A DNA stretch of 64,000 nt from assembly GCA_050012095.1 (NCBI GenBank), contig JBEKHV010000009.1, forward strand, positions 13,134-77,133, given 5' to 3'. The translations under genes were made by a program, and so were the position numbers. Of this stretch, positions 1 through 25,798 are shown in pieces. The notes beneath the pieces were generated by a model. That model saw nothing but the letters and a program-made list of their open reading frames with translations. It made no database searches and was not told the origin of the DNA. The DNA comes from Bryobacteraceae bacterium. GTDB taxonomy: Bacteria > Acidobacteriota > Terriglobia > Bryobacterales > Bryobacteraceae. The stretch's first letter is position 1. Each line of letters opens with the position of its first letter.

Positions 1-1288
1 CGATGGGCGCGGAGTTCATGCCAGGTCTTGAAAGGCTGTCGGTTCCGGCCAGCGAAAGCGGGGACCCAGTGACGGCGGCTCGGGTGGTTGCATTGAAAGC
101 GTACAGATAGCCGTCGTTGGAAGCGACAAACACCGTGTCCGTAGCCAAATCGTAAACCGGCGCGGTCAGAATCCCGCCGCCGGCGGCTATGGGCCAGCCC
201 GAAGCGATCGCCGGAGCGGTACCGTTGACGCTGAAGAAATTAGTAATCTTGTAAAGCCATCCGCTGTTGTCGCCCACGTAACCGGTATCGGTCGTATAGT
301 CCACAAAAGGCGAGGAGTTGGTGTCGTAGCTCGAACTCGAGAGAGTAACATTGCAGATCGATGGGGCAGCCGTGCCACAAGCGCCAAAACCAGAGTACGG
401 GGCGGTTATGGTTCCAATCGCGCCGCTCCCCAGGGTGAACACCTTTAACACCGGACTAGACGGACCAGAAGTACTAGTGGGCCAACTGTGAACGTAAGCT
501 ACCTTAGCGCCATCCAGACTAAGCGCCATAGACGTCGTAACGAATTGGCCCGACAAACTCCCCGTGCCGAAAGCCCACTTGACTTGGGGCGTCGGCGCCG
601 AGCCGCTGCCACCGTTACTGCCGGAGGGGGTGCCACACAAGGGGCTGGTGCTAGTCTGCCCCACGTAAAGATTTGTGATCCCCATCAGGTTCGCCTGGGT
701 CGAAAACCAGGCCTCATTTGCGCCAAAAACGACAAAGTCGCTGGCGCAGCTCGCCGCGCCGATCGGGTTGAAAGTGTATTTGGCCGGATACATGTAGGGT
801 GCAACGGAGGCGCCGTCGTTGGTTCTCGAAGTGTTGAAATTCCAGTCTCCCTTCAGATCGCTCTCGGGCGGACTCCTCGAATCGAGCGGACGCTTCGGAA
901 TTGGCGGTCTCCGGACTAGCTCCGGCGCACTCTCCGCTTCGGCGCCTGCCGCCATGCCCGGGCTGTTCGCAACCTGCGGCAATTGCTGCTGCCACCGGGG
1001 CGCGTTCCGCCGCATCTGTTGCATCGAGTAGCGGGGATCCAGCCGGGCGTCAAGTTGGGACTGCGTATCGCCACCGTCGGTGAAAATGAGATGATTGCTG
1101 CTCCAGTCCGTGGGAAACCCAACCGGTTGAGCGGCGCCGTTGTCCTGGGCGATTAACGGGACGGTAATCCAAGCCGCCAGCAACAAGGCGGGGAGCGCTT
1201 TCCCGAATAGTCCGGCGGACCGGCCACTTTTCAGGGAAGGGGCTGCCGCATTCCTTGCAGACCCAATGGGATCGAGCCTATTGAGCAT
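1..1288 (-). CDS. Secreted beta-propeller-repeat protein, paralog 1 (3' end runs off the left window edge)
   Basis: The frame is open from the ATG at 1288 to position 1. It is absent from the ORF track because no stop lies inside the window. N-terminus MLNRLDPIGSARNAAAPSLKSGRSAGLFGKALPALLLAAWITVPLIAQDN aligns with the N-termini of 2079..4082 and 4546..6894. GGAGG lies 7 nt upstream of the ATG. Confidence 0.8.
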   Translation of the reverse strand, partial: MLNRLDPIGSARNAAAPSLKSGRSAGLFGKALPALLLAAWITVPLIAQDNGAAQPVGFPTDWSSNHLIFTDGGDTQSQLDARLDPRYSMQQMRRNAPRWQQQLPQVANSPGMAAGAEAESAPELVRRPPIPKRPLDSRSPPESDLKGDWNFNTSRTNDGASVAPYMYPAKYTFNPIGAASCASDFVVFGANEAWFSTQANLMGITNLYVGQTSTSPLCGTPSGSNGGSGSAPTPQVKWAFGTGSLSGQFVTTSMALSLDGAKVAYVHSWPTSTSGPSSPVLKVFTLGSGAIGTITAPYSGFGACGTAAPSICNVTLSSSSYDTNSSPFVDYTTDTGYVGDNSGWLYKITNFFSVNGTAPAIASGWPIAAGGGILTAPVYDLATDTVFVASNDGYLYAFNATTRAAVTGSPLSLAGTDSLSRPGMNSAPI

Positions 1289-1374: not shown

Positions 1375-1413
1375 GACATTCCCGCTTTAAGTGATAAGTA
1401 CTAGTACCAGTAC
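1375..1413 (-). promoter_or_regulatory. Conserved upstream block with GTACTN hexamer repeats and the palindrome GTACTAGTAC, ahead of propeller paralog 1
   Basis: Minus-strand sequence is GGTACTGGTACTAGTACTTATCACTTAAAGCGGGAATGT. A near-identical block lies at 4172..4204 upstream of paralog 2. Both sit about 90-125 nt 5' of the respective ATG. Confidence 0.35.
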
Positions 1414-1551
1414 CCAGACAAAGGAATTAACAGAGCAGAACAGGAGCGCCGCGCGGCCGCCCCGCCTGGCGCAAAACGCGGGAAACCATGCGCCCGATCG
1501 GTCCAGGGTTGCGTCTTAGCGGTATTTCCCGCCCTTCCCAGATAACTCTTG

Positions 1552-1845
1552 TCATCCGCCCAACAATTGCCCCGGGGAAAACGGCGGGTTCGCATGAGGC
1601 AGGGGATCGCCGCGGGTAGTCAAAACGCCATCGGCCGACCGGTCAATCCCGATCGGCCGATGAATGCACAGCCGCTCCTCTCGTCTGAACAACGCCATAT
1701 CCCCCAAGCTAATTGCCTGTGCGTCCGTTCACTCGATGCGGAGCAGGTCGCCCGGCCAAAGGGTAGGGAGCATACTGGCGCCCATCGCGCACAGAGACAC
1801 AGAACCATGATCGCGGAGGACTTCCAGCGCAAGCTCTCGTTCCAC
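1552..1845 (-). pseudogene. SipW/ER-type (S26) signal-peptidase-like ORF interrupted by an in-frame TGA at 1729-1731
   Basis: Translation from the GTG at 1845 is VERELALEVLRDHGSVSLCAMGASMLPTLWPGDLLRIE*TDAQAISLGDMALFRREERLCIHRPIGIDRSADGVLTTRGDPLPHANPPFSPGQLLGG. It contains the SM-PTL, GD, HR and (T)RGD boxes in the order seen in Ser/His-type signal peptidases. No TM segment is present. Confidence 0.55.
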
Positions 1846-1880
1846 CCGGGCGCGGGCGGACGAGCCGTCATCCCCCTCCC

Positions 1881-2045
1881 TTAGGAGCGCTTGGTATTGG
1901 TTTGGCATTGTTGCTGCGTCGCGGAAATCTTGCCGCACGCCAGCGCCATGGTCTCGAAGGCGCGCCCGCACTTGAGCGCCGGCTTGTGGTAGGCTCTTTT
2001 CCCGATGGGGGCCGGAACGCGCTTCGGCGTGTCATCATTCTTCGT
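1881..2045 (-). pseudogene. Second copy of the 54-codon Cys-peptide ORF, with the start codon changed to ACG
   Basis: It matches 4348..4512 codon for codon: TKNDDTPKRVPAPIGKRAYHKPALKCGRAFETMALACGKISATQQQCQTNTKRS*. The C-terminal 34 codons encode the identical peptide. ATG->ACG at 2043-2045 leaves no canonical start after the upstream in-frame TGA. Confidence 0.45.
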
Positions 2046-2078: not shown

Positions 2079-4082
2079 TTAGTGTAGTCCGCTTTGCGTC
2101 AGCTTGTAGGCGCAGATGACAGCGCTAGCGCTGCCGATCCCGGTGTTGGCGGGATTGGCTGTGCCGCTAGTGGTGCAGTTCGCGCTCGTGGCGTCCCTCG
2201 AGGCGAAATAAAGGCTTGACGCATTAGAGATGGAAGTGTCGGCGCCGTCCACAATGATTCCAGCGGAGGAGCCAACGTTGTCACTCGCGCTCAAAGTCAG
2301 TGCGCCATGTAGGGTCTCGCCAGTTAGGTTATAGCTGACGACCCTTGCCGGTGGGGGCTCATTCGGAAGGCTAAAGAATAACCAGTCGGTCGCGGCGCCG
2401 CTGGTATTATAGAACTCCGTTAGCGGCGAGCATAGTGTGTTGCCCGCGCCGTTAGTTGAAGCGGCGACATTGGAAACTGTATACCCGGAGGATAGCAGCT
2501 TCATATTGGAGTCAAAGTTAAACTGTTGCAAGCTGACACCCCACGGGCTTGACGTTGAATTGGTTCCGCAGGCGTACAAGAAGGAAGTGTTCGTGTCAAA
2601 GCCGCTGAAATAACTTTGACTAAAGGCGCCGTCGCTGATGGGCCACATGCCGGCTGAAGTAGTCGCAAATGTCGCAAGGTTCGTCCCGGCAACGGCGGTA
2701 GAAGTAGACCCTGGCGTCCCCGCAGTGGCCGACGTCTTGAATTCGACGGCCCCAGCGCTGTGATCATAATAGACTACCTGGGCCACTTGGGCGGCAGTGC
2801 TACCGGCATTGGTGCCGTAGAACGCATAGAGAACGTGGTTGGTGGAGTCCACAACGGGCGCGGCCTCGATGCCATCGGATGCGGCGTGAGTGGTGTCGCT
2901 AGCGGCCAGCGAAAGCGGGGAATTGGTGATGGCGCCCCCGGTGGCGCCAGTGAAACCATACAGGTTACCGTTGCTGGAACCGACAAACACCGTGTCCGTA
3001 GCCCCGTCGTAAACCGGCGGCGACAGCGACGCCGTGCCGGCAGTTATTGTCCGGGTGATCGCCGGAGCGGTAGTGCTGCTGAACACATTGCTAATCTGGT
3101 ACAGGCTTCCAGCGTCGTCGCCCACGTATCCGTTACCAGTCGCATAGTCCACATAAATCGCGGAATAGGTGTTGGTGTGGTTGGCCGTTATCGAAAGGTT
3201 AAGGCAAAAAAGCGTGGCGGGCACGCTGGAACTGCAAGTAGCGGCCGTCGGGGCGGTCACTGTGCCGGTCTTGGCCCCTAGCGTAAGCACCTGCAACTGG
3301 AGTGGAGCGGATGAACCCACGGCGGTCGGAGTCAGGACGTAAGCCACCTTCTTGCCATCCGCACTGAGCACCACCGAGGTCCGGATCTGGCCGGTAGTCG
3401 AACCGGATTGGGTCACATTATAAGCCCACTCAACTTCGGGCGTCGGGGCCGTGCCGCTGCCGCCGTTACTGGCGATGGTGGAACACCCGCCGCTGCTCCC
3501 CACGTAAAGATTATTGACCCCCATCAGGTTCGCCTGGCCGGTGGCGCCTGGCACGTTGAGTCCAAAAATAACATAGTCCTTGGCGCAATCGGCCACGGCG
3601 ATCGGGTTAAAGGTGTATTTGGCCGGATACACGTAGCGCAGAACGTAGGTAGTGGTCTGCTGCGAAAAATTCCAATCTCGCGCCAGAGTCGGAGTACTCG
3701 GAGCCGGAGTACTCTGGCGCGGAGGCGCTGGTAGTGGTCTCCGGCCTATCCCCCACGGATCCGACGCCAGTTGCTCCCGCCACCGGGGCAGGTTCCCCCG
3801 CATCCATTGCATCCCATAGCGGGGGTCCCGCTGCGACTCGGTTTGGGATTGCACGGAACGGCTGGCGGTGAAAATGAGATGGTTGCTGCTCCAGTCCGTG
3901 GGAAACCCAACCGGCTGAGCGCCATTGTCCTGGGCGATTAACGGGACGGCAATCCAAGCCGCCAGCAGCGCCACCAGCACGCCGTAGAGCGCGTTCCAGA
4001 TTGGTCCGGCGGACCGGCCGCCTTCCAGGGAATGGGCTGCTGCGTTCTTTGCAGACCCCATGTAATCTCCTCTATCGAGCAT
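2079..4082 (-). CDS. Secreted beta-propeller-repeat protein, paralog 2
   Basis: This is the track ORF 2079..4187. The likely start is the ATG at 4082 (MLDRGDYMGSAKNAAAHSLEGG...) with GGAGG 9 nt upstream. It has a signal-anchor LVALLAAWIAVPLIAQDNG and blade-like motifs YVGDDAGSLYQISNVF and VFVGSSNGNLYGF. The protein is Ser/Thr/Asn/Gly-rich. Confidence 0.85.
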   Translation of the reverse strand: MLDRGDYMGSAKNAAAHSLEGGRSAGPIWNALYGVLVALLAAWIAVPLIAQDNGAQPVGFPTDWSSNHLIFTASRSVQSQTESQRDPRYGMQWMRGNLPRWREQLASDPWGIGRRPLPAPPRQSTPAPSTPTLARDWNFSQQTTTYVLRYVYPAKYTFNPIAVADCAKDYVIFGLNVPGATGQANLMGVNNLYVGSSGGCSTIASNGGSGTAPTPEVEWAYNVTQSGSTTGQIRTSVVLSADGKKVAYVLTPTAVGSSAPLQLQVLTLGAKTGTVTAPTAATCSSSVPATLFCLNLSITANHTNTYSAIYVDYATGNGYVGDDAGSLYQISNVFSSTTAPAITRTITAGTASLSPPVYDGATDTVFVGSSNGNLYGFTGATGGAITNSPLSLAASDTTHAASDGIEAAPVVDSTNHVLYAFYGTNAGSTAAQVAQVVYYDHSAGAVEFKTSATAGTPGSTSTAVAGTNLATFATTSAGMWPISDGAFSQSYFSGFDTNTSFLYACGTNSTSSPWGVSLQQFNFDSNMKLLSSGYTVSNVAASTNGAGNTLCSPLTEFYNTSGAATDWLFFSLPNEPPPARVVSYNLTGETLHGALTLSASDNVGSSAGIIVDGADTSISNASSLYFASRDATSANCTTSGTANPANTGIGSASAVICAYKLTQSGLH

Positions 4083-4171: not shown

Positions 4172-4204
4172 TGCATTCCCGCTTCAAGTGATAAGTACTA
4201 GTAC
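4172..4204 (-). promoter_or_regulatory. Conserved upstream block with the palindrome GTACTAGTAC, ahead of propeller paralog 2
   Basis: Minus-strand sequence is GGTACTAGTACTTATCACTTGAAGCGGGAATGC. It is nearly identical to the block at 1375..1407. Confidence 0.35.
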
Positions 4205-4311
4205 CGGCTCTTAGGCAAAGGAATCAGCAGAACACAGCCCGGCCGGCCCATCGCGCACAGAGATACAGAACGGTGATCGCGGAGGATTTCCAGCGCAAGC
4301 TCTCGTTCCAC
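4198..4311 (-). pseudogene. Deleted remnant of the signal-peptidase-like ORF (copy 2)
   Basis: VERELALEILRDHRSVSLCAMG matches copy 1 up to CAMG. The sequence then jumps straight into the conserved upstream block. Roughly 330 bp present in copy 1, including the catalytic SM-PTL box, is missing. Confidence 0.55.
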
Positions 4312-4347
4312 CCGGGCGCGGGCGCAGGAGCCGTCAGCCCCCTCCCA

Positions 4348-4512
4348 TCAGGAGCGCTTGGTGTTGGTTTGGCATTGTTGCTGCGTCGCGGAAATCTTGC
4401 CGCACGCCAGCGCCATGGTCTCGAAGGCGCGCCCGCACTTGAGCGCCGGCTTCTGGTAGGCTCTTTTCCCGATGGGGGCCGGAACGCGCTTCAGCGTGTC
4501 ATCATCCTTCAT
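4348..4512 (-). CDS. 54-aa Cys-containing small peptide (RiPP-precursor-like leader/core layout)
   Basis: Translation is ATG ... TGA: MKDDDTLKRVPAPIGKRAYQKPALKCGRAFETMALACGKISATQQQCQTNTKRS. GAAGGAG lies 7 nt upstream of the ATG. Third-codon positions are strongly G/C. The ORF starts 33 nt after the stop of paralog 3, and a second copy occupies the same relative position after paralog 2. Confidence 0.6.
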   Translation of the reverse strand: MKDDDTLKRVPAPIGKRAYQKPALKCGRAFETMALACGKISATQQQCQTNTKRS

Positions 4513-4545
4513 AGAAAAGCTCCTTCACGGAAAAAGCTCCGGGCC

Positions 4546-6894
4546 TTACTGCACCCCTCCCTGCGTGCGCTGCACCGCGCAGCCGCCCGCACTGCCGCCC
4601 GTACAACTGGCGACGCCAAGGGTGGAAAAGTACAAACTCGAGGCGTGGCCCAGCGCGCTCACGTTATCCACCACGATGCCGCTCGTCCCGCCAGACTCAG
4701 CGCCAGTGGCCTGGGGTATCGTGGGTAATCCGCTGGTGATATCAAACGATTCGACGCACCCGCCGCTATCTCCGCCGAACGCACAATTGCCTTGCACGCC
4801 GACGAACAGCCAATCCTTACTGGTGTTGTATATCTCGGCGAGCGGGGAGCACTCCCTCGGGGCGAGGTTGGTTCCGGCGGTGGTTCCAACCGCCAATGAA
4901 CTTCCAGGGGTGCCGGAGGGCATGACACCCGCGGAAAAGGGTATCCGGTAGAGGGTGGGGATGGCCGTCGCGCCAACGCCGCAGACATACAAGTTCCCGG
5001 TGCCCCCCCCGGTGTAATACGTGTTGTCGAAGGCGCCGATACGGGTTTGTTGAAAGGAAGCGTTTGCACTCCCCAAGGTGGCGGTGACGGCGCCCGTGAG
5101 CGTCGTAGAGACCTGAACCACTACCGGCGCTTGCGTGGTGGGGGCCCGGCCGAAGAACATGATCTTTGCTTTGCTCGAATCCATGATGGGCGGATCATCC
5201 ATGCCTTCAGAAACGCTGTCAAAGTACCCGGTGACGCGTCCTCCGAAACAGGGCGCCGTGCAGGCGCCGGCAGTGCTGCCAGTGTCGCGCCAGTAGTCCA
5301 TCCCGCCCGCTCTGTCGCCCGTGTAGATATTCTTCGTCGCATAATCGAATATCGGGCTATTAAGCGAAGCCGCCGTGCCGATCGAAATTCCCGAGGCCCA
5401 GGCGCCCGTCGCCTTGGCTGGGGTCCCAGTGAAAACGTTGATAATCTTCCACAGCGTGCCGGCAGCGTCTCCCACGTACAGACTGTCCGTTGAGTAGTCA
5501 TAATACGGCGCCGAACTGCCATTCGCGGCGGTGGTGTAGGTCAGCTTGAAATCGCAGGAGTCTGTGGTGGGATTGGTGCATGTCCCCGAAGTGATCACGT
5601 GATCCGGCACAACCGGCGCGGCTACGGTTCCCTGCGTCGCAGGATGTCCCGAACCGTCCCTTTTAGGGTGCAGGACGTGAAGAACGGAACCGCCACTGAT
5701 ACTCTCAACGTAAGCTACCTTCGTGCCGTCAAGAGAAACGACCGGCGACAAATAGACGTTGCCGCCCGTTCCGGTATGGGTGTCGTAGGCCCAAACCACG
5801 GTCGGACCGCCGGAGCCGCAGGTCCCGGCATCGCTGCCGCCCGCGAGAGAGGAGCCACCCCAGGCGAAGCCCGTGAGAGTTCCCCCCACGGTAATGGCGT
5901 TTCCGGCGCTGCCAGCCGTGGAAGCAGTGACCGTCACAAGGTTAGCGGACGAAGTCGCGGTCGCGCCAAGCAATGCCGGGGAGCCGTGGCAGGAGTTGAT
6001 CGCCGCCGCGAGGTTGGTTGCCGCCGTCGTGGTGCTGGTGGCGTCCACAAAGGTGCCCGCGGTTGAGCTGGTGCAAGCGTTGCTGCCGCTGCCTACAGGC
6101 GTCAGGGTAAGAGTGTTCGAGCCATTCTTGATCGTAACGGTGCCCGTCGTGGAGTTCGAAGAGAACGTCCCGATGACAGTGGCAGTGGTAGTCGGACCGG
6201 AATAGAGCTGATTGATGCCCACGACGCTCGGCTGCGTACTGGACGCGGCCACAGCCAAGGGAAACAGGACGAAGTCGTCGGTGCAGCTTGGGGCGGCGTT
6301 GATGTCCAAGGTGAACTTGGCAGGAAACGAGGCTAGAGAAATGGCGGCCGCCGCGCTCCCTCCCAGCGAAACGCTCCAGTCACCGTCAGGCCTGCCGATT
6401 GCTTGAATACGCCCGCGCGAGGGCATCCGCGGGGGCATCCAGGGTCCGGGTTCCAAAGCCGTGACATGTGCCGCGCCGCCTGCCTCCGCGTCTGCCTCGC
6501 CGGTTGCCTCCGGCGTCACTGCGTTGCCATCCGGCGCGGCCAAATATTTTTCCAAACCGGCGTTGCTAAGGGAGCGGGGGGGTAAATTGCGCTTGAAGAA
6601 TTGCTGCCAGAAACGGGGGTCTTTCTGGATATCTGCGGCGTTCTGAAAGGAATTGGGTCCAGAAAAGACGAGGTGCGCGTGGGTCCAATCCTGCGGCAGG
6701 CTGATCTTGGGCGGCGCGTTGTTGCCAACCGTCTGAGCGGCGCCGTTGTCCTGGGCGATTAACGGGACGGCAATCCAAGCCGCCAGCAGCAAGGCGTGGA
6801 GCGCTTTCCGGACTGGTCCTGCCGACTGGCCGCCTTTCAGGGAATGGGCTGCTGCGTTCTTTGCAGACCCAATGTAATCTCCTCTATTGAGCAT
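4546..6894 (-). CDS. Secreted beta-propeller-repeat protein, paralog 3
   Basis: This is the track ORF 4546..7095. The likely start is the ATG at 6894 (MLNRGDYIGSAKNAAAHSLKGG...) with GGAGGG 7 nt upstream. It shares AAWIAVPLIAQDNG, DWTHAHLVFSGP and blade motifs LYVGDAAGTLWKIINVF and IYTGDRAGG. Confidence 0.85.
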   Translation of the reverse strand: MLNRGDYIGSAKNAAAHSLKGGQSAGPVRKALHALLLAAWIAVPLIAQDNGAAQTVGNNAPPKISLPQDWTHAHLVFSGPNSFQNAADIQKDPRFWQQFFKRNLPPRSLSNAGLEKYLAAPDGNAVTPEATGEADAEAGGAAHVTALEPGPWMPPRMPSRGRIQAIGRPDGDWSVSLGGSAAAAISLASFPAKFTLDINAAPSCTDDFVLFPLAVAASSTQPSVVGINQLYSGPTTTATVIGTFSSNSTTGTVTIKNGSNTLTLTPVGSGSNACTSSTAGTFVDATSTTTAATNLAAAINSCHGSPALLGATATSSANLVTVTASTAGSAGNAITVGGTLTGFAWGGSSLAGGSDAGTCGSGGPTVVWAYDTHTGTGGNVYLSPVVSLDGTKVAYVESISGGSVLHVLHPKRDGSGHPATQGTVAAPVVPDHVITSGTCTNPTTDSCDFKLTYTTAANGSSAPYYDYSTDSLYVGDAAGTLWKIINVFTGTPAKATGAWASGISIGTAASLNSPIFDYATKNIYTGDRAGGMDYWRDTGSTAGACTAPCFGGRVTGYFDSVSEGMDDPPIMDSSKAKIMFFGRAPTTQAPVVVQVSTTLTGAVTATLGSANASFQQTRIGAFDNTYYTGGGTGNLYVCGVGATAIPTLYRIPFSAGVMPSGTPGSSLAVGTTAGTNLAPRECSPLAEIYNTSKDWLFVGVQGNCAFGGDSGGCVESFDITSGLPTIPQATGAESGGTSGIVVDNVSALGHASSLYFSTLGVASCTGGSAGGCAVQRTQGGVQ

Positions 6895-7365: not shown

Positions 7366-8580
7366 TCACACGGCGGCAGGGCGCGCTGGGGAGGGCTGCT
7401 TCCGCGAGGTTTGCGCCACGCCGAGGATATCCAGAATACGGCCCACGCCTTGAGGAAGATCGTAATGCTCGAGGAAAGCCTGGCGCGCGCGCCCCCCGGC
7501 CGCATGGACGAGATCCGGGTCGGAAGCCAGCGCTTGCAGAAGATCCACGAGCGCAGCCGAGTCGCCGGGCTCGATGCGCCAGCCGCAGCCGAAACGCTCG
7601 ATCATCTGGGCCGGCGTACCGCCCGCGGGACCGATGTAGAGGAATGGCCGGCCCGCGGCCATGAGCGCGTACGTCTTGCTGGGTACGACTGAGCCGCAGG
7701 TGGCGGGATGCTGGGTGACGAGGCCGATGTGGCAACTCCCGAGGTGCTCGCCAAGGCGCGCCCGGTCCTGGTAGGGAATGTAGACCGCGCTTGTGATATT
7801 GGCGGAGCGGCAGCGGGCTTCCAGCCGGTCCCGGCGGGGCCCCGCTCCGGCAAAAACGAAGCGGAAGCGCGCGGGATCGGCGAGGCTCTCCATGGTTTCC
7901 TCGATGGTGTCCACATCGTGGGCGCGGCCCAGGTTGCCGGAATAGAGGACGGTCAGCGGAAGATGGGGCGGAAACGGCCGAGGTGAGATGACTGAACCAT
8001 CGGCCCAGTTCTCGGCCACCGCTATTTTGTCGGATGGCGTCCCGCGGGCGATCAAGCGCCCGCGCATGCTCGCCCCGAGGGCGATGACGCGGTCGGCGCG
8101 GCGGCGGGAAAAGTCCGCCAGCGCGCCGATCGCACGGTCCAGGAAAGAGCCGCGGCGAAGAACGGCAAGATCGACGGCGATATCGGGGTAGACGTCCATT
8201 TCCCAACTGAAGTGCCTGGCCCCGCGCAGGAGTTTCATGAGAGTGCCGATGAGCGACAGCAGCGGCGGCGTGGTGAGGGTGAGAACCACGTCCGGGCGGG
8301 GGCCAAAGAGGGTATGGTACAGAGCGCCAACATAAAAGCTGGCATAGGAAGACAGGCGGGCGACGTGGCCGTGCCCAAAACCGACAGCCGGCAGACTGCG
8401 GACGGTAAAGCCGGGCGCCTCGCGGCCGCCGGCGTGGCCCCCATCGGCATACGCCGTCCCGGCGCAGACTACCGTGACAGAGTGCCCCCCGGCGGCCAGC
8501 GCCCGCGCCACGTCGGAGAGAAGCTGGCCGGTGGGGGCGTCATCTGGGGGAAAGAACTGGTTGAGAAGCAGGAATCTCAT
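7366..8580 (-). CDS. Glycosyltransferase family 4 (WcaI-like)
   Basis: MRFLLLNQFFPPDDAPTGQLLSDVARALAAGGHSVTVV at the N-terminus and a C-terminal GT1/GT4 Rossmann region (PSKTYALMAAGRPFLYIG). The start was moved to the ATG at 8580. Confidence 0.8.
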   Translation of the reverse strand: MRFLLLNQFFPPDDAPTGQLLSDVARALAAGGHSVTVVCAGTAYADGGHAGGREAPGFTVRSLPAVGFGHGHVARLSSYASFYVGALYHTLFGPRPDVVLTLTTPPLLSLIGTLMKLLRGARHFSWEMDVYPDIAVDLAVLRRGSFLDRAIGALADFSRRRADRVIALGASMRGRLIARGTPSDKIAVAENWADGSVISPRPFPPHLPLTVLYSGNLGRAHDVDTIEETMESLADPARFRFVFAGAGPRRDRLEARCRSANITSAVYIPYQDRARLGEHLGSCHIGLVTQHPATCGSVVPSKTYALMAAGRPFLYIGPAGGTPAQMIERFGCGWRIEPGDSAALVDLLQALASDPDLVHAAGGRARQAFLEHYDLPQGVGRILDILGVAQTSRKQPSPARPAAV

Positions 8581-8622
8581 GGGAGTCACTATTATCCCGT
8601 GCAAGCGGGCACTGAAAGCCGC

Positions 8623-9525
8623 CTACGTTCGCGAAGGCGGCGCGCTCACTGAGGCTTGGCCCTCAGGTCGAAGGCGCTCTTCGCCGCTCCGGCGCAGTTC
8701 AAGTAACTTAGCGTCCACCAGAGAACGGTACCAGAGCGCCTGAAAGAAATGGTAAGCGAAACCCTCGGCTCCGTCTAGAAACCCCGCTCTAAGGAGGTAA
8801 CGGTACGCCCAATACAGCCACGCCCTAATAAAGAGCGGAAAACGCCGGTAAAACCCTTCCTTCAGCCGGCGTTTGGCCTTGGCTTGCCCGTGAAGGCGGT
8901 CGGAGGTGGGATGCCGCGAAGAAAGGTCGCGGCACTCGCGAATCGCGTAGCCATTGTGTTTCTCTATCCAGTGAGTCAGTCCCTTTCTGTTCTCGTGGAC
9001 CAAGTCGGCATGGATTTTGACGGTAGCTCCGGAATCGAGCGAGACGTGTTCGTCCATCCAACGGTCCTCGCATCGTCCCGCTCCACGGCGCCACACGCGC
9101 AGCAACCACGTCGGATACATGCCGCCATGACGGATCCAACGGCCAAGAAAATGGATTCGAAGGCGCACCATACCGCCGGCTACGCTCGCGGGCGCGCCGG
9201 CGAGTCTGTTCAACTCGTCGCGAAGCTCTGGCGTCAGGGCCTCATCCGCATCCAGGCGTAAGACCCAACCCGCGGAGCTGGAGATATTGTCGAGCGCCCA
9301 GTTGAACTGCGTGGCGTAGTTAGTCCAAGGATTGGAGAGGACGGTTGCTCCCAGACTGCGAGCCAGCTCCGGCGTGCCATCCGTACTTCCGCAATCTATG
9401 ACGAACACCTCGGCGGACAGTCCTTCCAGACTCCGCAGGCAATAGGGGAGATTCGTCGCCTCGTCCTTGGTCAGGATGACGACCGCGATATGGGGGTTCG
9501 TCACGGTATTCGAGTCCGCGCGCAA
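8623..9525 (-). CDS. Glycosyltransferase family 2
   Basis: Typical GT-A N-terminus: IAVVILTKDEATNLPYCLRSL..VFVIDCGSTDGT..LRLDADE. Confidence 0.85.
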   Translation of the reverse strand: MRADSNTVTNPHIAVVILTKDEATNLPYCLRSLEGLSAEVFVIDCGSTDGTPELARSLGATVLSNPWTNYATQFNWALDNISSSAGWVLRLDADEALTPELRDELNRLAGAPASVAGGMVRLRIHFLGRWIRHGGMYPTWLLRVWRRGAGRCEDRWMDEHVSLDSGATVKIHADLVHENRKGLTHWIEKHNGYAIRECRDLSSRHPTSDRLHGQAKAKRRLKEGFYRRFPLFIRAWLYWAYRYLLRAGFLDGAEGFAYHFFQALWYRSLVDAKLLELRRSGEERLRPEGQASVSAPPSRT

Positions 9526-9540
9526 AATGGCTGTTTCCCG

Positions 9541-10140
9541 TCAGCTTCGGTTCGGGTCCGTGCTGTCGGTCAGGACCCGCATTTTGATAAAGCGCGCGGG
9601 ATTGCCCGCCACAACGGCCCACGGAGCAACGTCGCGGTTGACAACGGACCGCGCCCCCACCACGGCGCCTTCACCAACGTTCACCCCCGGGCCGAGAAAA
9701 GCGCCCGCGCAAACCCACGCATGGCTCCCTATGCGTATGGGGGTCGAGACTAAGGGCATCGATTTTCTTGTGTAATCATGCGTGGCGGTGCAGATATAGG
9801 CGTATTGCGAGACCGTGCAACATTCACCCAGCGAGACGGGCGCAACATTGTAACAGTCCACAAAAGGAGCGAGGCAAGCATAGTGTTTCATCGTCAGATT
9901 CCATGGCGCCCATATGCGCACGCTCGGGTGAATCACGGCTCCCGTCTCAATCCGCCCGCCGAACATCCGAAGTAGGAACCGCCGCCATCCATGGAAAACC
10001 TTGGGACTGGGCCGAAACGCTAGAATGTACGCCGTCGCCCAAACGCTGCGCATAAGTCTGTTACCCAGATTGTGAGGGCTAGGTATGCTCCCCCGGCTCG
10101 GGCCCGTGGGATGCGCCGGCGATGCGTCTGCTGGAATCAT
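9541..10140 (-). CDS. Hexapeptide-repeat O-acetyltransferase (WcaF-like)
   Basis: Left-handed beta-helix repeats are visible: IGSHAWVCAGAFLGPGVNVGEGAVVGARSVVNRDVAPWAVVAGNPARFI. Confidence 0.8.
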   Translation of the reverse strand: MIPADASPAHPTGPSRGSIPSPHNLGNRLMRSVWATAYILAFRPSPKVFHGWRRFLLRMFGGRIETGAVIHPSVRIWAPWNLTMKHYACLAPFVDCYNVAPVSLGECCTVSQYAYICTATHDYTRKSMPLVSTPIRIGSHAWVCAGAFLGPGVNVGEGAVVGARSVVNRDVAPWAVVAGNPARFIKMRVLTDSTDPNRS

Positions 10141-11114
10141 GCGATGTGCTGAGTCGGCGCGCCCGGCTGCGCCCTTACGACGCCGAGCCAGCTTACAAAC
10201 CGTGCTACGCCTTCGGAAAAGGCGGTCTCCGGACGATAGCCGAGCAGCGACCTCGCTTTGTGAATGTCCGCGCAGGTGCGCGGCACGTCGCCGGGCTGTT
10301 CGGGTTGCGGGTCGAGCACGGCCTTCTTGTTCAATGCGCCCTCGATGCAGCGGATCATGTCCCGCAGCGTTATGGGATTGCCGTTCCCCAGGTTGATCAC
10401 CTCATAGGCGCTGGACCGGTATTCCATGGCGGCGCGAATTCCGGCGACAACGTCGTCTACATACGTGTAATCGCGGCTCGAGGATCCGTCTCCGTACATG
10501 GCCGCCCGTCGGCCGTCGAAGATCGCCTCCGTGATCTTGCGGATGGCGAGATCGGGCCGCTGGCGGGGGCCGTACACGGTGAACAAGCGAAGCGCGAGGA
10601 AGCGGATGCCGTACAAGCGCGAGTAGACGTGCCCGAGGAGCTCGCCGCTGACCTTCGTGGCGGCATACGGGCTGATGGGAAGCAGGACGTGGTCGTCTTC
10701 GCTCCACGGCGTTCTGGGGTTGATGCCGTAAACGCTGCTGGAGGAGGCGAAGACGAACTGCGGAACGCCAGCAGCGCGGGCGAAATCGAGTACGTTCTGG
10801 AACCCCGCCACGTTGACGCGTACGTATCCCGCCGGGTCGGCTATCGACGGGCGGACGCCCGCCTTGGCGGCGAGGTGGACAATGCAGTCGACCGGCGTCG
10901 GGACTGAAGCAAGGGCATCCGGGTTGCAGATATCGGCCTCCACTAGGCGGAAACCGGGCAAGAGCGAACAGCGGGCAAGGTTGGCCTGCTTGAGACTGCG
11001 GGGGTAAAACGGGTCGAAGTTGTCGGCCACGGTGACGCGCGCGCCTTCGGCGAGCAGCGTCTCGGCGAGGTGGCTGCCGATGAACCCGGCGCCGCCGGTT
11101 ATGAGGCAATGCAT
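10137..11114 (-). CDS. NAD-dependent epimerase/dehydratase (UDP-glucuronate 4-epimerase-like SDR)
   Basis: MHCLITGGAGFIGSHL, a YAATK catalytic motif and a C-terminal DVPRTCADIHKARSLLGYRP. The start was moved to the ATG at 11114. Confidence 0.8.
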   Translation of the reverse strand: MHCLITGGAGFIGSHLAETLLAEGARVTVADNFDPFYPRSLKQANLARCSLLPGFRLVEADICNPDALASVPTPVDCIVHLAAKAGVRPSIADPAGYVRVNVAGFQNVLDFARAAGVPQFVFASSSSVYGINPRTPWSEDDHVLLPISPYAATKVSGELLGHVYSRLYGIRFLALRLFTVYGPRQRPDLAIRKITEAIFDGRRAAMYGDGSSSRDYTYVDDVVAGIRAAMEYRSSAYEVINLGNGNPITLRDMIRCIEGALNKKAVLDPQPEQPGDVPRTCADIHKARSLLGYRPETAFSEGVARFVSWLGVVRAQPGAPTQHIA

Positions 11115-12301
11115 TGGGTCTCCACTTTGCTCCCCGCGGAATCGGGAAAAACGCGTTCGGGCATGGGGCCGCACCCCAGCACCCAATCGTTCACCGCCGT
11201 CATCTGCTCGCCGATCGCCGGCCAGGAAAAACACGATTGAACCAACTCCACCCCCCGCGCGCCCATGGCGGCGCGCTCCTCGGGCCTCCGGCTCAACATG
11301 TCCCGTAAAGCGCCTTCGATCTCGCGGTCCGAGGGACCCACCACCGCCCCGCAGCCCATCTGGGCGACTTCCGGAAAGTTACAGCCCGGCGTGATGATGA
11401 CCGGGCGCGCCATCGCGAGCGCCTCGAGAATCGCGATACTGAAACCCTCCGAGTGCGATGGCAACACGAAGAACTCCGCCGCGGCCAGCGCCGCCCATTT
11501 TTCCTTGCCGGCCAGCATACCGGTATACGTCACACTGGTTTCCAGACGGAGCTTGCGCACAAGCGCCTCGATGCGGCTGAGGGTGCCTTCGTAGTCGGGG
11601 CCGGCGATCACCAGGTGCGCGCCGGGAAACTCCTTCGCTACCGCGGCCCACGCCCGGCACAGGATGTCGACCCCCTTCTTGTAGTGAATGCGGCTCAGGA
11701 AGAGGACCAGCCTCTTGCCAGCCAAACCGGGGAATGCTAGGTAGAACGGATCTGGGCTAAAGCTTGGGGGCGGGTCTATGCCGTTTGGTATGAGGGCCGC
11801 CGGGGCGTGGAGACCGTAGCGCCGGTAGTCCGCGATCTCCCGCATTGTGAGCGCGCGGAGACACGCCGCGCCCCGCAGATTGGGGCGTTCAACCAGCGCG
11901 GAGTACGGCGATTTCTTCCAGCGCTTGTTAAGCAAGGCCCAGCGCTCCAGCATGCCGTGGGCGGAGACGATAAAAGGGCGGTCCAGCTTGCGGCAAATCT
12001 GGCCCGTGGTCACGCAATGTCCTTCCCAAATACCATGGATGTGCGCGAGATCGCATTGCGAAATCAGCCGCGAGAGGGAGCGCCAGAGCTTCCCGAACAA
12101 GGCGGCGGCGGGGCTCCAGGAGATCCGGATGACTTCCACCTCCGGGATGACCACCTCATAATCGCCGGAATCTGAGAAATACACGATTCGCTGGTAATAA
12201 CGGCCCGTCGCGGCGACCGCCCGGACGAGCGCGGGCACGGATGCGCTCGTTCCGCCGGAACGCGGGTCCAAGCCGCGGATGATGTGCAGGGCCTGTTTCA
12301 T
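11099..12301 (-). CDS. Glycosyltransferase family 4
   Basis: GT1/GT4 C-terminal signature: FFVLPSHSEGFSIAILEALAMARPVIITPG. Confidence 0.85.
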   Translation of the reverse strand: MKQALHIIRGLDPRSGGTSASVPALVRAVAATGRYYQRIVYFSDSGDYEVVIPEVEVIRISWSPAAALFGKLWRSLSRLISQCDLAHIHGIWEGHCVTTGQICRKLDRPFIVSAHGMLERWALLNKRWKKSPYSALVERPNLRGAACLRALTMREIADYRRYGLHAPAALIPNGIDPPPSFSPDPFYLAFPGLAGKRLVLFLSRIHYKKGVDILCRAWAAVAKEFPGAHLVIAGPDYEGTLSRIEALVRKLRLETSVTYTGMLAGKEKWAALAAAEFFVLPSHSEGFSIAILEALAMARPVIITPGCNFPEVAQMGCGAVVGPSDREIEGALRDMLSRRPEERAAMGARGVELVQSCFSWPAIGEQMTAVNDWVLGCGPMPERVFPDSAGSKVETQCIAS

Positions 12302-12313
12302 TCTTGGCGGTTT

Positions 12314-13519
12314 TCAGGAGCGGAATCGGTACCGCGGCCTCATCAACAGAAGCCGGAGCAGGGCAGCATCGGACAAGCGCGGCTGGCGAGGGGGCGTAGC
12401 GCGGCGAACAGCTCCTTCCATGCCGGCCCCAAAGCGTTCCGGTGGCCATTCGGCGATCGCGCGGCGCGAGGCTTCGCCCATGCGGAGGCGGTCGTCGCCG
12501 CGCGAAGCGGCCTGAAGCAGCAGGCTGGCCAGCGCCTCCTCGTCGAGCGGATCGAACGTGAACCCGTTGACGCCCTCGCGCACCAGGTCCGCGGAGCACC
12601 CGCACCGTTTGGAGACCAGCACCGGCAGACCGGCGGCCATGGCCTCATTCACCACCAAGCCCCATTGCTCCACCGTGCTGGCGTGGACAAATGCGGCCGC
12701 CAGACCATAATAACCGGGCAGTTGCTCGTATTGAACGAACCCTGGGAGCAAGAGGCTGTCGCCCAGAGACAACTTATCGGCCAGAGCTGGAATTTCGCGC
12801 CTGAGGGGGCCGTCTCCGAGCAGGACGAGCTTCCAAGGGGTCTGCGGCGCCAGCGCGCGGAAGCGGGCGAACGCCGCGACAAGCCGGAGCAGGTTCTTCT
12901 TCTCCACGAAGCGGCTGCTGGCCAGGAAATAACTCTCCGGCAGGCCCAGCCGCTGCCGGCTGCCGGCGGCATCGGCGCGCGCCGCCTCGGCGCCCCGCGC
13001 AAAATGGCTGTTATCCACCACGTCGTACCCCAGGAAGATCCGATCCTCCGCCATGCCGAGTTGCCTGAGATATGCGGCGTGCTGCGTGCCCCCGACCAGG
13101 GCCGCGGAGAACAGGCTCACGAGCCGGCGCTTCATGGCCTCGCCTCGCCAGGAACGTTTGTCATCGCCGTCCTGGCTTTCCGACATCAGAACCGCGGGCA
13201 CGCCGGCCTCGCCGCACCAGCGCAGCGCGGCGAGGGCGAATGGCTCGTACCAGCCCGGGATCGCCACGGCCCGCGGCTGAATTCCATCGAGGACTTGGAC
13301 GACGCGTTGCACCAACTGCGGCCGCGGCAGCGCGTCCGGATCCTCGTCCGGGAAAAAGGTGACCCGGCTCAACTCCGGCGTCGCCACTGCGTCCCAGGCA
13401 TACGTATGATCCACTGGGGTCGCTTCGACGGCCACCACGGGCAGACGGGCGGCGGCCGCGTTCAACCGTGCTCGATGATAGGGACCCATCCGGCGGAAAA
13501 GAATGGCGACGGGATTCAT
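12314..13519 (-). CDS. Glycosyltransferase family 4
   Basis: AFVHASTVEQWGLVVNEAMAAGLPVLVSKRCG. The start was moved to MNPVAILF at 13519. Confidence 0.8.
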   Translation of the reverse strand: MNPVAILFRRMGPYHRARLNAAAARLPVVAVEATPVDHTYAWDAVATPELSRVTFFPDEDPDALPRPQLVQRVVQVLDGIQPRAVAIPGWYEPFALAALRWCGEAGVPAVLMSESQDGDDKRSWRGEAMKRRLVSLFSAALVGGTQHAAYLRQLGMAEDRIFLGYDVVDNSHFARGAEAARADAAGSRQRLGLPESYFLASSRFVEKKNLLRLVAAFARFRALAPQTPWKLVLLGDGPLRREIPALADKLSLGDSLLLPGFVQYEQLPGYYGLAAAFVHASTVEQWGLVVNEAMAAGLPVLVSKRCGCSADLVREGVNGFTFDPLDEEALASLLLQAASRGDDRLRMGEASRRAIAEWPPERFGAGMEGAVRRATPPRQPRLSDAALLRLLLMRPRYRFRS

Positions 13520-13588
13520 GAACCTGGGCGGCAGCCGCCCTGCGCGGCCGCGGAGCCGGCGGGCGGGAAACAAAGACGGGATATGGTA

Positions 13589-14782
13589 TTACGCTCCACG
13601 CATTCCGTTCCCGGCGGGACTCAGGGCGCGTATCAGGCGTTCCTCGTACCGCTCCCACGTGTGTTCCCGCAGAGCCAGTTCCCGCGCTCGCAAGCTCATT
13701 TCGGCGCGCAATTGCCGATTCGTGACGATAGCCTCGATCCTGTCGGCCAGCGCCGTCGCGCCCCGGATCGGGACGATGAACCCCTCCACTCCGTCGCGAA
13801 TCAGCGTCCCGCAGTTTGGAGTGGTCACCACTGGCAACCCGCACGCTAAAGCTTCTATGTGCGCCGTGGCCGAGCCTTCGGCCAGCGTCGGCAGAACAAA
13901 CGCATCCGCCCTGAGGAACTCTTCCCGGATGTCTGTCCGTGGTACCGGGCCGATGTACGTAGGGCCGGCAAACCGTGGGTCGGCCGCAACGCGGCTGCTG
14001 ACCGCTCCAACCACCCGAATTTGACATGGGACGCGCCGCTTCTCCAGAAGCCGTGCGGCTTGCGCCAGATAATGGCTCCCCTTTCGAAGCCCGACGGATC
14101 CGACGAAGACCACCCTCCCAGGCTCGGGCCTGGGTTGCAGCCCGAACCACCCCTCATCGACGGCGTAGGGGACCAGCCAGACCTTTCCCGCATCCCCTCC
14201 CATACGTCCGATCGCTTCGCGCACGTAGCCCGATGGCGCCAAGATCCTCGTCGCGTCTTGCCAAATTCGGCGGTGCGCGCCCGCATAGCGCGCGTCGTTT
14301 TCGGGGGCCTCCTGCGCCTCAATTCCGGGGAAGGCGTCCCGTTCTTCGACCATGATCGCAGGGTGGTCCGGGCTGATTACCTGCTCGAATGCAACATCCA
14401 AGCCCCGGCGCCTGGCCTCGCTGATGACCTCCACGTCTGCGAACATCAGGGAGTATAAGCCCGCCGCCGACCCGAACCCGCGCCTCAGAAGCTGCTGGTT
14501 GATGCTCGTTTCGACGAACCTGCCGCGCAATCGATGCCAGAGCGTCCGAATCGGAAAGGACCGCACGGATTCCCTGGGCACCTCCGGCGGCAACCTCCGG
14601 CCTAGCAGGCTCCGCATCTCTTGCGTTCGTAACGCTCCCGGGAGCGCCCGCTGGGCCAGCCGCGCCGGCCAGTCCGCGGCGTGCACGTCGGTCCAAAACT
14701 CCGCGAGCATACCCCGCCGCGCTAGGATTGCAGGAACCGCGTAGTGCATCCGGGCGCCCATCTGAAGAACGAGGTACCTCAC
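13589..14782 (-). CDS. Glycosyltransferase family 4-like
   Basis: AFVLPTLAEGSATAHIEALACGLPVVTTPNCG. Confidence 0.75.
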   Translation of the reverse strand: MRYLVLQMGARMHYAVPAILARRGMLAEFWTDVHAADWPARLAQRALPGALRTQEMRSLLGRRLPPEVPRESVRSFPIRTLWHRLRGRFVETSINQQLLRRGFGSAAGLYSLMFADVEVISEARRRGLDVAFEQVISPDHPAIMVEERDAFPGIEAQEAPENDARYAGAHRRIWQDATRILAPSGYVREAIGRMGGDAGKVWLVPYAVDEGWFGLQPRPEPGRVVFVGSVGLRKGSHYLAQAARLLEKRRVPCQIRVVGAVSSRVAADPRFAGPTYIGPVPRTDIREEFLRADAFVLPTLAEGSATAHIEALACGLPVVTTPNCGTLIRDGVEGFIVPIRGATALADRIEAIVTNRQLRAEMSLRARELALREHTWERYEERLIRALSPAGNGMRGA

Positions 14783-14870
14783 GCTCTAGACCTGTTGGCG
14801 CGCCATCGAGACGCTGACGTTATGTCTGGACATCCCGTCTACCGGGATTGGTGCATCGAACTGGACTTGG

Positions 14871-15896: not shown

Positions 15897-16182
15897 GGCT
15901 TATGTCCTTTAGCTAAACTCGCGTCGAAACCGCATTCCTGGTGATTTTCAGTTTGGGTTCCATTGATGCAACTGACTTTCCATCTCCGACGCTGTCGGAT
16001 CTTGAAACCCGAGCTGCGCCAGCGCCATGTCTCGCAGAAGCCCCGCCGGCGCGCACTCGGAGTCGAGGAGAACTGGGATCCAGCGCAGATCGGGAGTCGT
16101 GATCCGAATTGGCATGTCGGACTTCAAACACCTGTGACATTCGTGAAGAGGGCGCTGCGCCTTCGACGCGCCAGGATTCGCT

Positions 16183-16875: not shown

Positions 16876-17258
16876 TCGTTATTTTGGATACTGCTTTTAG
16901 GGTAACTCGGCGGACCGGCCCAGCGCTTTTGAAACGACCCAATCCGCATACGGGAGCAGCAATCGCAGTCTCTTCGGGGCGGTGCGGATGTTTGCAAGTC
17001 GCATGATCCAGAAACTGGAACGAGCGGTGAAGAAGAATGCAAAGATATTCGCCGTCTTAGGGACGACCTTCTGAGGTGCGGGCATGCACACCAGGCGGCC
17101 CGACTCGTCCTCGCCCCTAACTAAGGGGCGTTTTGTTGTGTGAACATCCGGGACACTGGTAAGGCGCTCATCCCCGCAGCCAACACCCCGCGATCCCACT
17201 CGAGGCTGCCAAGGCGTCCGCGCTTGAACGGCTCAGCGTCACAGCCTCGAGCAGCCAG

Positions 17259-18350: not shown

Positions 18351-18432
18351 TGCAAAGAGAAGGCTTGCCTGATAACGGATGTGCGCCACGTTTTGGAGCT
18401 GGGCGCCGCCTCTGACCCCAGCCAAGCTATCA

Positions 18433-20837: not shown

Positions 20838-20879
20838 CGCTCGCTCCCGAAAATGAAACGACGGAATCGGATTGTCCGG

Positions 20880-22172: not shown

Positions 22173-22298
22173 GCGCGATTTCTCCGAGTCCGGGCTAAGC
22201 GGAGTCCTGGTTCAGCGCGGAAATGTAGATACATCCGAGTGGCGAGGGGTAACAAGGCGAGAGACAGTAAAATTGCCATCGCACTATGGGCGCGCCGT

Positions 22299-25780: not shown

Positions 25781-25798
25781 ACGGAGGCAGTGACGAGG

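Follow-up and report, generated by a model that had tools for sequence, protein, structure and literature searches.

The stretch of DNA analyzed here, hereafter the window, comprises 64,000 nucleotides of contig JBEKHV010000009.1 from a Bryobacteraceae bacterium. Close to its left end, on the minus strand, lies a short open reading frame (ORF) at positions 4348 to 4512, which we call copy B and which has the translation MKDDDTLKRVPAPIGKRAYQKPALKCGRAFETMALACGKISATQQQCQTNTKRS. An earlier note on this DNA had suggested a genuine small gene here, with a product resembling the precursor of a peptide made on the ribosome and then modified after translation (RiPP). As judged from its homologues, the ORF is a real, conserved coding gene. 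Its best explanation, which we consider probable, is that it encodes the precursor (substrate) peptide of a maturation system built on a radical S-adenosylmethionine (rSAM) enzyme with a SPASM domain, and that the copies found here are amplified orphans whose local maturases have been lost.

The features of the window are collected in Table 1. Immediately 5' of the copy B start codon the sequence reads GAAGGAG followed by the 7-nt spacer CTTTTCT, just as the earlier note had it. Because the 33 nt that part the gene from the stop codon of the upstream β-propeller gene hold this Shine-Dalgarno sequence, the two genes are likely cotranscribed. A near-twin, copy A, lies some distance downstream and differs from copy B by six nucleotides: ATG to ACG at the start, D3N, L7P, Q20H, one synonymous AAC/AAT change, and a TGA/TAA stop. 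This exactly reproduces the count given previously (four nonsynonymous changes in the first 20 codons, one synonymous, one in the stop codon). Since the start codon is ACG and no in-frame ATG, GTG, or TTG occurs in copy A downstream of the preceding stop, this copy is probably not translated. The A/B duplication spans ∼35 nt upstream and ∼100 nt downstream of the ORF, and the downstream flank is ∼92% identical. That flank is not neutral spacer but what is left of the 5' end of an S24/S26 peptidase pseudogene; the A/B flank comparison is, by itself, weak evidence that the ORF is more than a recent duplication. No Rfam family matched window positions 1 to 8000 at E ≤ 1, and a promoter and terminator scan of positions 1200 to 4700 returned nothing informative on the minus strand.

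A word-indexed search with the peptide recovered 10 homologues of 51–81 residues (best E 5e-24), and a profile search of a library of 1.84 billion representative sequences extended the family to 617 clusters (50% identity) at E ≤ 1e-3, 261 of them at E ≤ 1e-10, with matches that stop at the protein C-terminus. A scan of one genome per GTDB species located 253 loci with a relative, mostly in Terriglobia and Acidoferrales (Acidobacteriota) with a few in Burkholderiales, Lysobacter, and Limnocylindrales metagenome-assembled genomes (MAGs); the core is also kept across Acidobacteriota, Burkholderiales, and Chloroflexota MAGs. In 81 complete ORFs the last 36 residues align without gaps to the consensus Y-x-K-P-x-F-x-x-E-[RK]-x-F-E-T-M-A-L-A-C-G-K-x-x-x-[TS]-[QE]-x-x-C-x-x-N-R-K-x-S-stop. 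Membership was assigned with the slightly looser signature Y-x-K-P-x-F-x2-E-[RK]-x-F-E-T-x-A-L-x-C-G-K-x3-[TS]-[QE]-x2-C-x2-N-[RK]-K-x-S(stop), which the window peptide fits: it keeps Y19, K21, P22, F30, E31, T32, A34, L35, C37, G38, K39, T43, Q44, C47, N50, and S54 and departs from it at F24L, E27G, and R51T.

The stretch FETMALACGK, both Cys residues, and the terminal Ser are invariant in all 75 unique cores from other genomes. Over these cores the nucleotide entropy at codon positions 1, 2, and 3 is 0.54, 0.47, and 1.32, the mean pN of 0.18 stands against a mean pS of 0.76, which is saturated, and the median dN/dS is 0.13, so the idea of a genuine small gene is borne out by the family, the codon-position pattern, and the substitution ratio alike. 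In the wider family, positions 33 and 36 vary and A34, L35, C37, G38, and K39 persist; the C-x9-C spacing is found in 70 of 79 members and the terminal Ser in 74 of 78. The N-terminal 15–30 residues are variable in both length and sequence. The earlier note had allowed that homologues might share no conserved C-terminal region; FETMALACGK...C...S is in fact the most conserved part of the peptide. A typical natural-product precursor with a variable core is not supported, as here it is the N-terminus that varies and the C-terminal segment that is most conserved. The peptide matched no Pfam or NCBIfam model at E ≤ 1, a metagenome scan for closer relatives found none above 72% identity, nor did it reveal a cassette of the lineage's own, if there is one, and within the full texts searched, no paper on the motif, on Acidobacteria with rSAM/SPASM and PqqD, on rSAM/SPASM with HPr kinase and PqqD, or on SynChlorMet describes the system. 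The family is apparently undescribed.

Gene order points in the same direction. The canonical arrangement across homologous loci is a secreted β-propeller, the peptide, a Sec11/SipW-type S24/S26 peptidase, a ScmC-like P-loop protein resembling HprK and phosphoenolpyruvate carboxykinase (PEPCK), a PqqD protein, and an rSAM/SPASM enzyme. In a Ca. Acidoferrum MAG (L002) these are a 976-aa protein, the peptide, and proteins of 196 (S24/S26 peptidase), 279 (ScmC family), 106 (PqqD), and 392 aa (rSAM/SPASM). The same order recurs in L164, L165, and L166, loci reached independently through homologues of the window's large protein. The full cassette is present in ∼55 of 80 genome loci, a permuted order (ScmC, PqqD, rSAM, peptide, S24) in 7, and an orphan peptide gene in ∼22. 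Clustering of all ORFs placed a member of the β-propeller family within 10 kb in 67 of 81 loci and returned no other conserved neighbor in the 81 loci, including any transporter, exporter, or immunity gene. Because most homologues directly adjoin a PqqD-family protein and an rSAM/SPASM enzyme, the best reading of these sequences is that of a RiPP-type precursor whose Y-x-K-P-x-F segment would be read by a PqqD-type element, an idea that the earlier note had raised and that this synteny supports. Two genomes, CAWEVU01 (L012, L013) and CAVPPO01 (L016, L032), each hold a full cassette together with an orphan copy encoding a nearly identical peptide, which makes processing of orphan copies in trans plausible. 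Two further observations concern these loci. An accessory gene for a nucleotidyltransferase-like protein (PF14907, NTP_transf_5) occurs in 21 of them (e.g., L164:15031-16224 and L166:14938-16197), and L165 carries, besides its cassette PqqD, a second, divergent PqqD of 109 aa just upstream of the propeller gene (L165:3938-4267).

A short ORF in a GC-rich genome, where spurious ORFs are common, and in a recently duplicated stretch that reaches past the ORF, might also be a chance frame or a noncoding element. Conserved synteny, the codon-position pattern with a dN/dS of 0.13 over 75 distinct homologues, the 617-cluster family with matches that end exactly at the protein C-terminus, and the lack of an Rfam match in the region all speak against this. 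On these comparative grounds we regard the chance-ORF reading as refuted and give it next to no probability.

The cassette proteins of the homologous loci were compared with curated models and solved structures. The PqqD protein matches PF05402 at 7e-11; among NCBIfam models it fits the GeoRSP PqqD chaperone best, at a score far under the cut-off, and its matches to lasso PqqD models are weak (E 1.5e-5, 25 bits against a cut-off of 80). The rSAM protein has Radical_SAM and SPASM domains and scores ∼138 bits against the AhbD and MftC models, far under their cut-offs; among solved structures the sactisynthase SkfB comes nearest (5e-17), ahead of BlsE and PqqE. The best matches of the peptidase are the archaeal-type signal peptidase I model (TIGR02228; 44.6 bits, cut-off 51.85) and human SEC11. 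It has a hydrophobic C-terminal tail and is without an N-terminal transmembrane segment. Its residues Ser65, His103-Arg104, Asp122, and Asp128 are conserved in 46 homologues, and these we take to be the Ser-His-Asp boxes of endoplasmic reticulum/SipW-type signal peptidases. The ScmC-like protein has as invariants His136, G-x-S-G-x-G-K-T-T (151–159), and Asp173-Glu174. It matches ScmC, the HprK-related kinases A and B, and ATP-dependent PEP carboxykinase weakly around the P-loop, and a PDB profile search with its alignment returned matches at the P-loop/PEPCK level only.

In the window, this cassette is no longer intact. L001, a locus reached via a homologue, is 100% identical to window positions 1 to 7081 and extends 10.5 kb past the left end, so that 74.5 kb were examined in all. 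Across them the propeller-peptide module is tandemly amplified. Along the direction of transcription, the array opens with a propeller and peptide B (ATG), and a propeller, peptide A (ACG), and the peptidase pseudogene come next. Two propellers in a row then lead to peptide C, which starts with GTG. A further propeller is followed by a peptide remnant of 31 codons, another by the decayed peptide D (ending in ...FETMAFACGEISTAQQRVDFFV and a stop), and the last by peptide E, which starts with ATG. In total there are no fewer than seven propeller genes; of the six peptide copies, three are intact, one is startless, and two are decayed.

The local maturation cassette has decayed. The peptidase pseudogene downstream of copy A carries an in-frame TGA (1729-1731), a second stop near 1549, and a frameshift, and after copy B only a 5' remnant of the peptidase gene is left, as a ∼350-bp deletion took out the rest. 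Genes for ScmC, PqqD, or a cassette-type rSAM were found neither in the 64-kb window nor in the 10.5-kb L001 extension. The earlier remark that no PqqD-like ORF adjoins the peptide is thus correct for the window and for 10.5 kb past its left end, and the partner is missing because the local cassette has decayed to a peptidase pseudogene, with ScmC, PqqD, and rSAM gone. Among relatives that have kept the cassette intact, L165 is the closest: its propeller is 55% identical, its cassette adjoins Wzy_C and TPR genes, and its peptide (MKNADTPQSAPARSGKKPYQKPTFKHERAFETMALSCGKLNPTQGQCKLNKKSS) retains the canonical F and E. F24L and E27G, at otherwise invariant leader positions, are found in the window lineage alone and are derived changes in the presumed recognition segment.

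These features would suit a reading in which the peptide copies are decaying, nonfunctional leftovers that ride on propeller duplication and resemble one another through gene conversion. Of the six copies, three have decayed or have no start codon, the peptidase persists as a pseudogene, this lineage is alone in having changed the near-invariant F24 and E27, and the synonymous divergence of the paralogue cores is near zero, which suggests gene conversion. The comparison of copies bears on this directly. Copies B and C differ at 12 of the 40 nt upstream, at 13 of 60 nt in codons 1–20, and at 31 of the 60 nt downstream, compared with 1 of 102 nt in codons 21–54. Because flanks and leader codons have diverged while codons 21–54 are nearly identical, conservation of the core is not just a product of recent duplication; the flanking DNA is not equally identical, a possibility that the earlier note had left standing, and none of the refuting outcomes which that note listed is borne out. 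In three copies (B, C, and E) the frame is unbroken and still has its start codon and Shine-Dalgarno sequence, with amino acid changes confined to the variable N-terminal 20 residues and a 34-residue core that is identical. Copy D shows what relaxed constraint looks like, with ∼15 core changes and the loss of Cys47, and orphan peptides in other genomes keep all of the invariant residues. We therefore rate the view of the copies as relics as improbable.

Taking the intact paralogues together (1881..2045 and 4348..4512 in the window; L001:10001-10165 and L001:17440-17586), codons 21–54 differ at 0–2 of 102 nt, synonymous sites included, and flanks and leader codons differ by 20–50%. As even synonymous changes are almost missing among the paralogue cores, yet saturated between genomes, the pattern suggests gene conversion that is confined to the core and acts in addition to selection, or else a constraint at the nucleotide level that operates within this genome.

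Table 1. Features of the window, in window coordinates, with the strand on which each is read.
Feature	Position	Strand	Details
Peptide gene, copy B	4348..4512	-	54 aa, intact; ATG start, GAAGGAG Shine-Dalgarno, TGA stop
Spacer, propeller stop to copy B start	4513..4545	-	33 nt, contains Shine-Dalgarno
Peptide gene, copy A	1881..2045	-	ACG replaces ATG; core same as copy B
S24/S26 leader peptidase pseudogene (Sec11/SipW-type)	1466..1908	-	46% identical to intact L165 gene
S24/S26 peptidase 5' remnant after copy B	4222..4371	-	first ∼57 codons; overlaps 3' end of peptide ORF
β-Propeller gene, partner upstream of copy B	4546..6894	-	782 aa (JGI call), open frame to 7095; N-terminal hydrophobic signal/anchor
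Second β-propeller paralogue	2079..4061	-	660 aa; AF2 model: N-terminal helix, then propeller
Third β-propeller paralogue	1..1186	-	runs off left end of window; array goes on in L001
Fourth β-propeller paralogue	48784..51045	-	far end of exopolysaccharide locus; no peptide gene after it
19-mer AAGTGATAAGTACTAGTAC	4186..4204	+	palindrome AGTACT/AGTAC; ∼125 nt upstream of start codon of propeller 2079..4061
19-mer, second exact copy	1389..1407		upstream of third paralogue (start less certain)
Exopolysaccharide/capsule locus	7366..45513	-	large
rSAM/SPASM protein	17259..18440	-	393 aa
Wzc-like kinase	41214..43550		exopolysaccharide locus
Wza-like exporter	43591..44622		exopolysaccharide locus
NusG/RfaH-like protein	44920..45513		exopolysaccharide locus
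ORF with Cas6 CRISPR endoribonuclease domain	57607..58704	-	PF10040, 1e-15

The rest of the window is an exopolysaccharide locus, with the propeller-peptide array at its distal end. Besides Wzc-, Wza-, and NusG-like proteins it encodes NeuB, many glycosyltransferases (GT4 and GT2), a WcaF-like acetyltransferase, sugar epimerases and dehydratases, and a thiamine pyrophosphate enzyme. Among its glycosyl- and methyltransferase genes lies the rSAM/SPASM gene of Table 1, whose best NCBIfam matches (tungsten-cofactor maturase, MoaA) are far under cut-off. A role for this protein as a maturase acting in trans finds no support at present: it is ∼27% identical to the cassette rSAMs over the radical SAM core, stands in an exopolysaccharide setting, and does not recur near orphan peptides. 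The window has two copies of the conserved AAGTGATAAGTACTAGTAC 19-mer, where chance would give 0, and a variant of it stands upstream of the propeller gene at L001:15440; the 19-mer is a candidate promoter or operator.

By analogy with PqqA/D/E, sactipeptide and ranthipeptide systems, QhpC/QhpD, and the lasso kinases, we infer the following course of maturation. The PqqD-type recognition element would bind the conserved Y-x-K-P-x-F...E-R-x-F segment. The SkfB-like rSAM/SPASM enzyme would then cross-link the invariant Cys37 and Cys47 (spacing 10), and the likely products would be thioethers to the conserved downstream residues T43/Q44 and N50; this expectation follows from the likeness of the enzyme to SkfB and from the presence of T43/Q44 and N50 downstream of each Cys. 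The kinase-like protein may act on the invariant C-terminal Ser by phosphorylation. The serine peptidase would remove the N-terminal part somewhere in residues 33–37, where T-x-A/L (the slash marking the cut) is the best fit to the −3/−1 rule: T32-x-A34/L35 has small residues at both positions family-wide, and A-L-A/C does so in a subfamily only. The intact orphan copies, including 4348..4512, would depend for their processing on a cassette that lies at another place in the genome and acts in trans.

Other readings of this stretch were set aside. A-L-A/C as a general signal-peptidase A-x-A site was rejected, as the residue before the Cys is R, N, W, or I in some members, and a lipobox reading of A-L-A-C was rejected for want of a hydrophobic signal segment. 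The cut after T-M proposed in the earlier note is not supported either, with residue 33 freely variable in the wider family and a partner protease of the Sec11/SipW serine type. Because that protease is not a lasso B protease, the Thr(−2) rule is without basis here.

Several points weigh against the proposed precursor role and its chemistry. What is proposed for the modification chemistry, for the site of cleavage, and for the kinase-like protein is drawn from analogy. Members of the wider family differ in the residue that precedes Cys37 (R, N, and W occur), so that the A-L-A/C site is not general, and the ScmC-like protein matches HprK-related models weakly (E ∼4e-6, far under cut-offs). No exporter is conserved in the 81 loci, though the peptide would be modified in the cytoplasm and the propeller Sec-exported. 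Finally, because F24L and E27G occur in this lineage only and half of the copies have decayed, maturation in this organism may have been lost or altered.

The propeller genes at 4546..6894 and 2079..4061 each end 33 nt ahead of a peptide gene and are homologous to the upstream genes of L002, L164, L165, and L166. Their products share the motifs D-W-S-x-x-H and R-D-W-S-x-S-L-G ... P-A-K-Y-T-F ... C-x-N-D-F-V-V-F and an N-terminal hydrophobic helix. Against the PDB, the family profile matches PQQ-like/BamB-type repeats (PQQ, pyrroloquinoline quinone), with the designed "Cake" proteins at 5e-20 and also 3hxj and TolB. An AlphaFold2 model (pLDDT 79, pTM 0.83) predicts an N-terminal helix, a helical hairpin, and a β-propeller, and Foldseek with this model returned generic propellers only (among them PQQ alcohol dehydrogenase, BamB, and methylamine dehydrogenase heavy chain; query TM-scores 0.2–0.4). 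The model together with these matches establishes the β-propeller fold of the large protein; no specific function follows from the fold. The propeller C-terminal tail, C-A-V-K-L-T-Q-x-x-L-x (window 2079..2115 and 4546..4582; loci L008-L083), loosely resembles C-G-K-I-S-A-T-Q of the peptide, which may be coincidence because the tail Cys is not invariant.

One possibility that we hold as doubtful, if less so than the relic reading, is that the matured peptide, cross-linked by the rSAM enzyme and possibly phosphorylated at its C-terminus, is no diffusible natural product but serves as a small subunit or peptide-derived cofactor, perhaps of a new kind, of the secreted β-propeller encoded just upstream. 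A propeller gene is found with the peptide in 67 of 81 loci, a higher share than that of the maturases, and the two are amplified as a unit; yet the propeller is missing from ∼15–20% of loci. From Acidobacteriota through Burkholderiales to Chloroflexota MAGs the core does not vary, whereas typical RiPP cores are hypervariable, and neither immunity nor export genes are conserved in the loci, which suits a subunit, although a route for peptide export is then also missing. Fold matches include PQQ-dependent alcohol dehydrogenase and the methylamine dehydrogenase heavy chain, but the likeness is generic, with query TM-scores of 0.2–0.4 and an equally good match to BamB. Quinohemoprotein amine dehydrogenase (QHNDH) offers a precedent (PMC7876137), and the methylamine dehydrogenase small subunit is a further analogue; against these, the core is without the Trp or Tyr needed for quinone formation, and no redox partner genes are conserved. 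If this reading were true, the tandem modules would be diversified two-component proteins attached to an exopolysaccharide locus. More generally, that the ten-residue stretch, both Cys residues, and the terminal Ser are invariant across phyla points to a molecular partner that is itself conserved and away from an antibiotic shaped by an arms race.

Hundreds of species genomes carry members of the family, and Acidobacteriota, which are abundant in soil, have had their peptide natural products and cofactors little studied. The family is a tractable target for heterologous reconstitution. The window itself offers an evolutionary snapshot in which precursor-plus-partner modules are amplified while the adjacent maturases decay.

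Of the known systems, those nearest for comparison are PQQ, sactipeptides and ranthipeptides, mycofactocin, and QhpC/QhpD; the analogies in the earlier note were lasso peptides and PqqA. The leader of PqqA, W-x-K-P-x-F, resembles the Y-x-K-P-x-F of the present family. Like the present system, the PQQ pathway uses a precursor of small size, a recognition protein of the PqqD family that stands alone, and a SPASM radical SAM enzyme. In PQQ biosynthesis, PqqD binds PqqA in its N-terminal part, and the C-terminal part is where PqqE acts (PMC10906245). Here, in contrast, there is no E-x3-Y pair, as no Tyr follows E31, and there are no pqqB or pqqC genes; the cassette rSAM scores 94.8 bits against a PqqE cut-off of 381, and two invariant Cys residues point to different chemistry. 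The specific PqqA likeness is thus not upheld: the peptide has no NCBIfam match at E ≤ 1, a result that covers PqqA itself only if the release holds the model that we take to be TIGR02107, as it presumably does.

Nor is the lasso analogy upheld. It would make the peptide a lasso precursor cut after T-M and closed by an N-terminal macrolactam, and it draws on the resemblance to Y-x-x-P-x-L ... T-x, on the fact that PqqD-type proteins also act as lasso B1 proteins, and on the weak matches of the cassette PqqD to lasso PqqD models. However, no Asn-synthetase-like cyclase or transglutaminase-like B2 protease is present among the annotated ORFs of the window or conserved in the 81 loci. Positions 7–9 are I, S, and A in a core counted from A34 and T, Q, and Q in one counted from C37, with no Asp or Glu in either. 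The family consensus has F rather than L, position 33 is variable, and the partner enzyme is a radical SAM/SPASM protein. As these are defining features, we consider a lasso precursor extremely unlikely.

A subgroup of lasso systems is nonetheless instructive for the C-terminus. The phosphorylated lasso peptides (paeninodin PadeK, ThcoK, and SyanK; pseudomycoidin PsmK and PsmN) share with the present system an HPr-kinase-like P-loop enzyme beside a PqqD-type protein and a strictly conserved C-terminal Ser in the precursor. Those kinases phosphorylate the conserved C-terminal Ser of the linear precursor, and the nucleotidyltransferase-like PsmN further elaborates this Ser (PMC9266682). The PF14907 accessory gene in 21 loci recalls PsmN of this kinase and nucleotidyltransferase-like pair. 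The systems differ in that no lasso cyclase or B2 protease is found here, the HprK homology is weak, and the motif is H...GxSGxGKTT...DE.

Sactipeptide and ranthipeptide systems (SkfA/SkfB, subtilosin AlbA) have in common with ours a Cys-containing precursor, an rSAM/SPASM maturase that depends on a recognition element, and, judging from the alignment, residues downstream of each Cys that could be used as thioether acceptors. Here, however, the recognition element is a separate PqqD and not a fused domain, the core is invariant across phyla rather than hypervariable, ABC exporter and immunity genes are missing, and a Sec11-type peptidase, a kinase-like protein, and a propeller are added. The in-silico systems SynChlorMet (ScmC, ScmD, ScmE, ScmF) and GeoRSP share a ScmC-type P-loop protein, a PqqD homologue, and an rSAM/SPASM enzyme, and the cassette proteins find their best, or nearly best, family matches in PF27840 ScmC, TIGR04249, and TIGR04302 GeoRSP PqqD. 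Scores against the SynChlorMet models (TIGR04248-04251) fall far under the equivalog cut-offs, with 39.9 bits for ScmC (cut-off 125), 20.4 for ScmD (100), 95.3 for ScmE (400), and 60.9 for ScmF (400). SynChlorMet also differs in having two rSAM proteins where there is one here, in lacking the identified precursor, peptidase, and propeller of the present system, and in occurring in other taxa. Nor does the system belong with mycofactocin: the cassette rSAM scores 137.8 bits against TIGR03962 (cut-off 265), and the peptide ends in K-x-S, not in the C-terminal Val-Tyr of MftA.

QHNDH maturation (QhpC, γ subunit; QhpD, rSAM/SPASM enzyme; QhpE, protease; QhpB, propeller) resembles the present system in bringing together a small leader-bearing polypeptide, an rSAM/SPASM enzyme, a serine protease, and a β-propeller. 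There, QhpD cross-links the QhpC γ subunit in the cytoplasm, the leader is cut off by a serine protease dedicated to the task, and the product works with a propeller subunit (PMC7876137). The two systems have no sequence relationship; here neither a heme subunit nor a flavoprotein nor an ABC exporter is encoded, the peptide has no Trp and is far shorter, and it is gene order that suggests an association of peptide and propeller.

Taken together, these comparisons indicate that the earlier note was right in kind and wrong in its specific analogies. To our knowledge, the combination of a stand-alone PqqD, a SPASM rSAM enzyme, an HprK/PEPCK-like P-loop protein, a Sec11-type peptidase, and a secreted propeller has not been reported, and the system appears to work like a RiPP pathway dependent on a RiPP recognition element and an rSAM/SPASM enzyme while standing outside every curated family with which it was compared.

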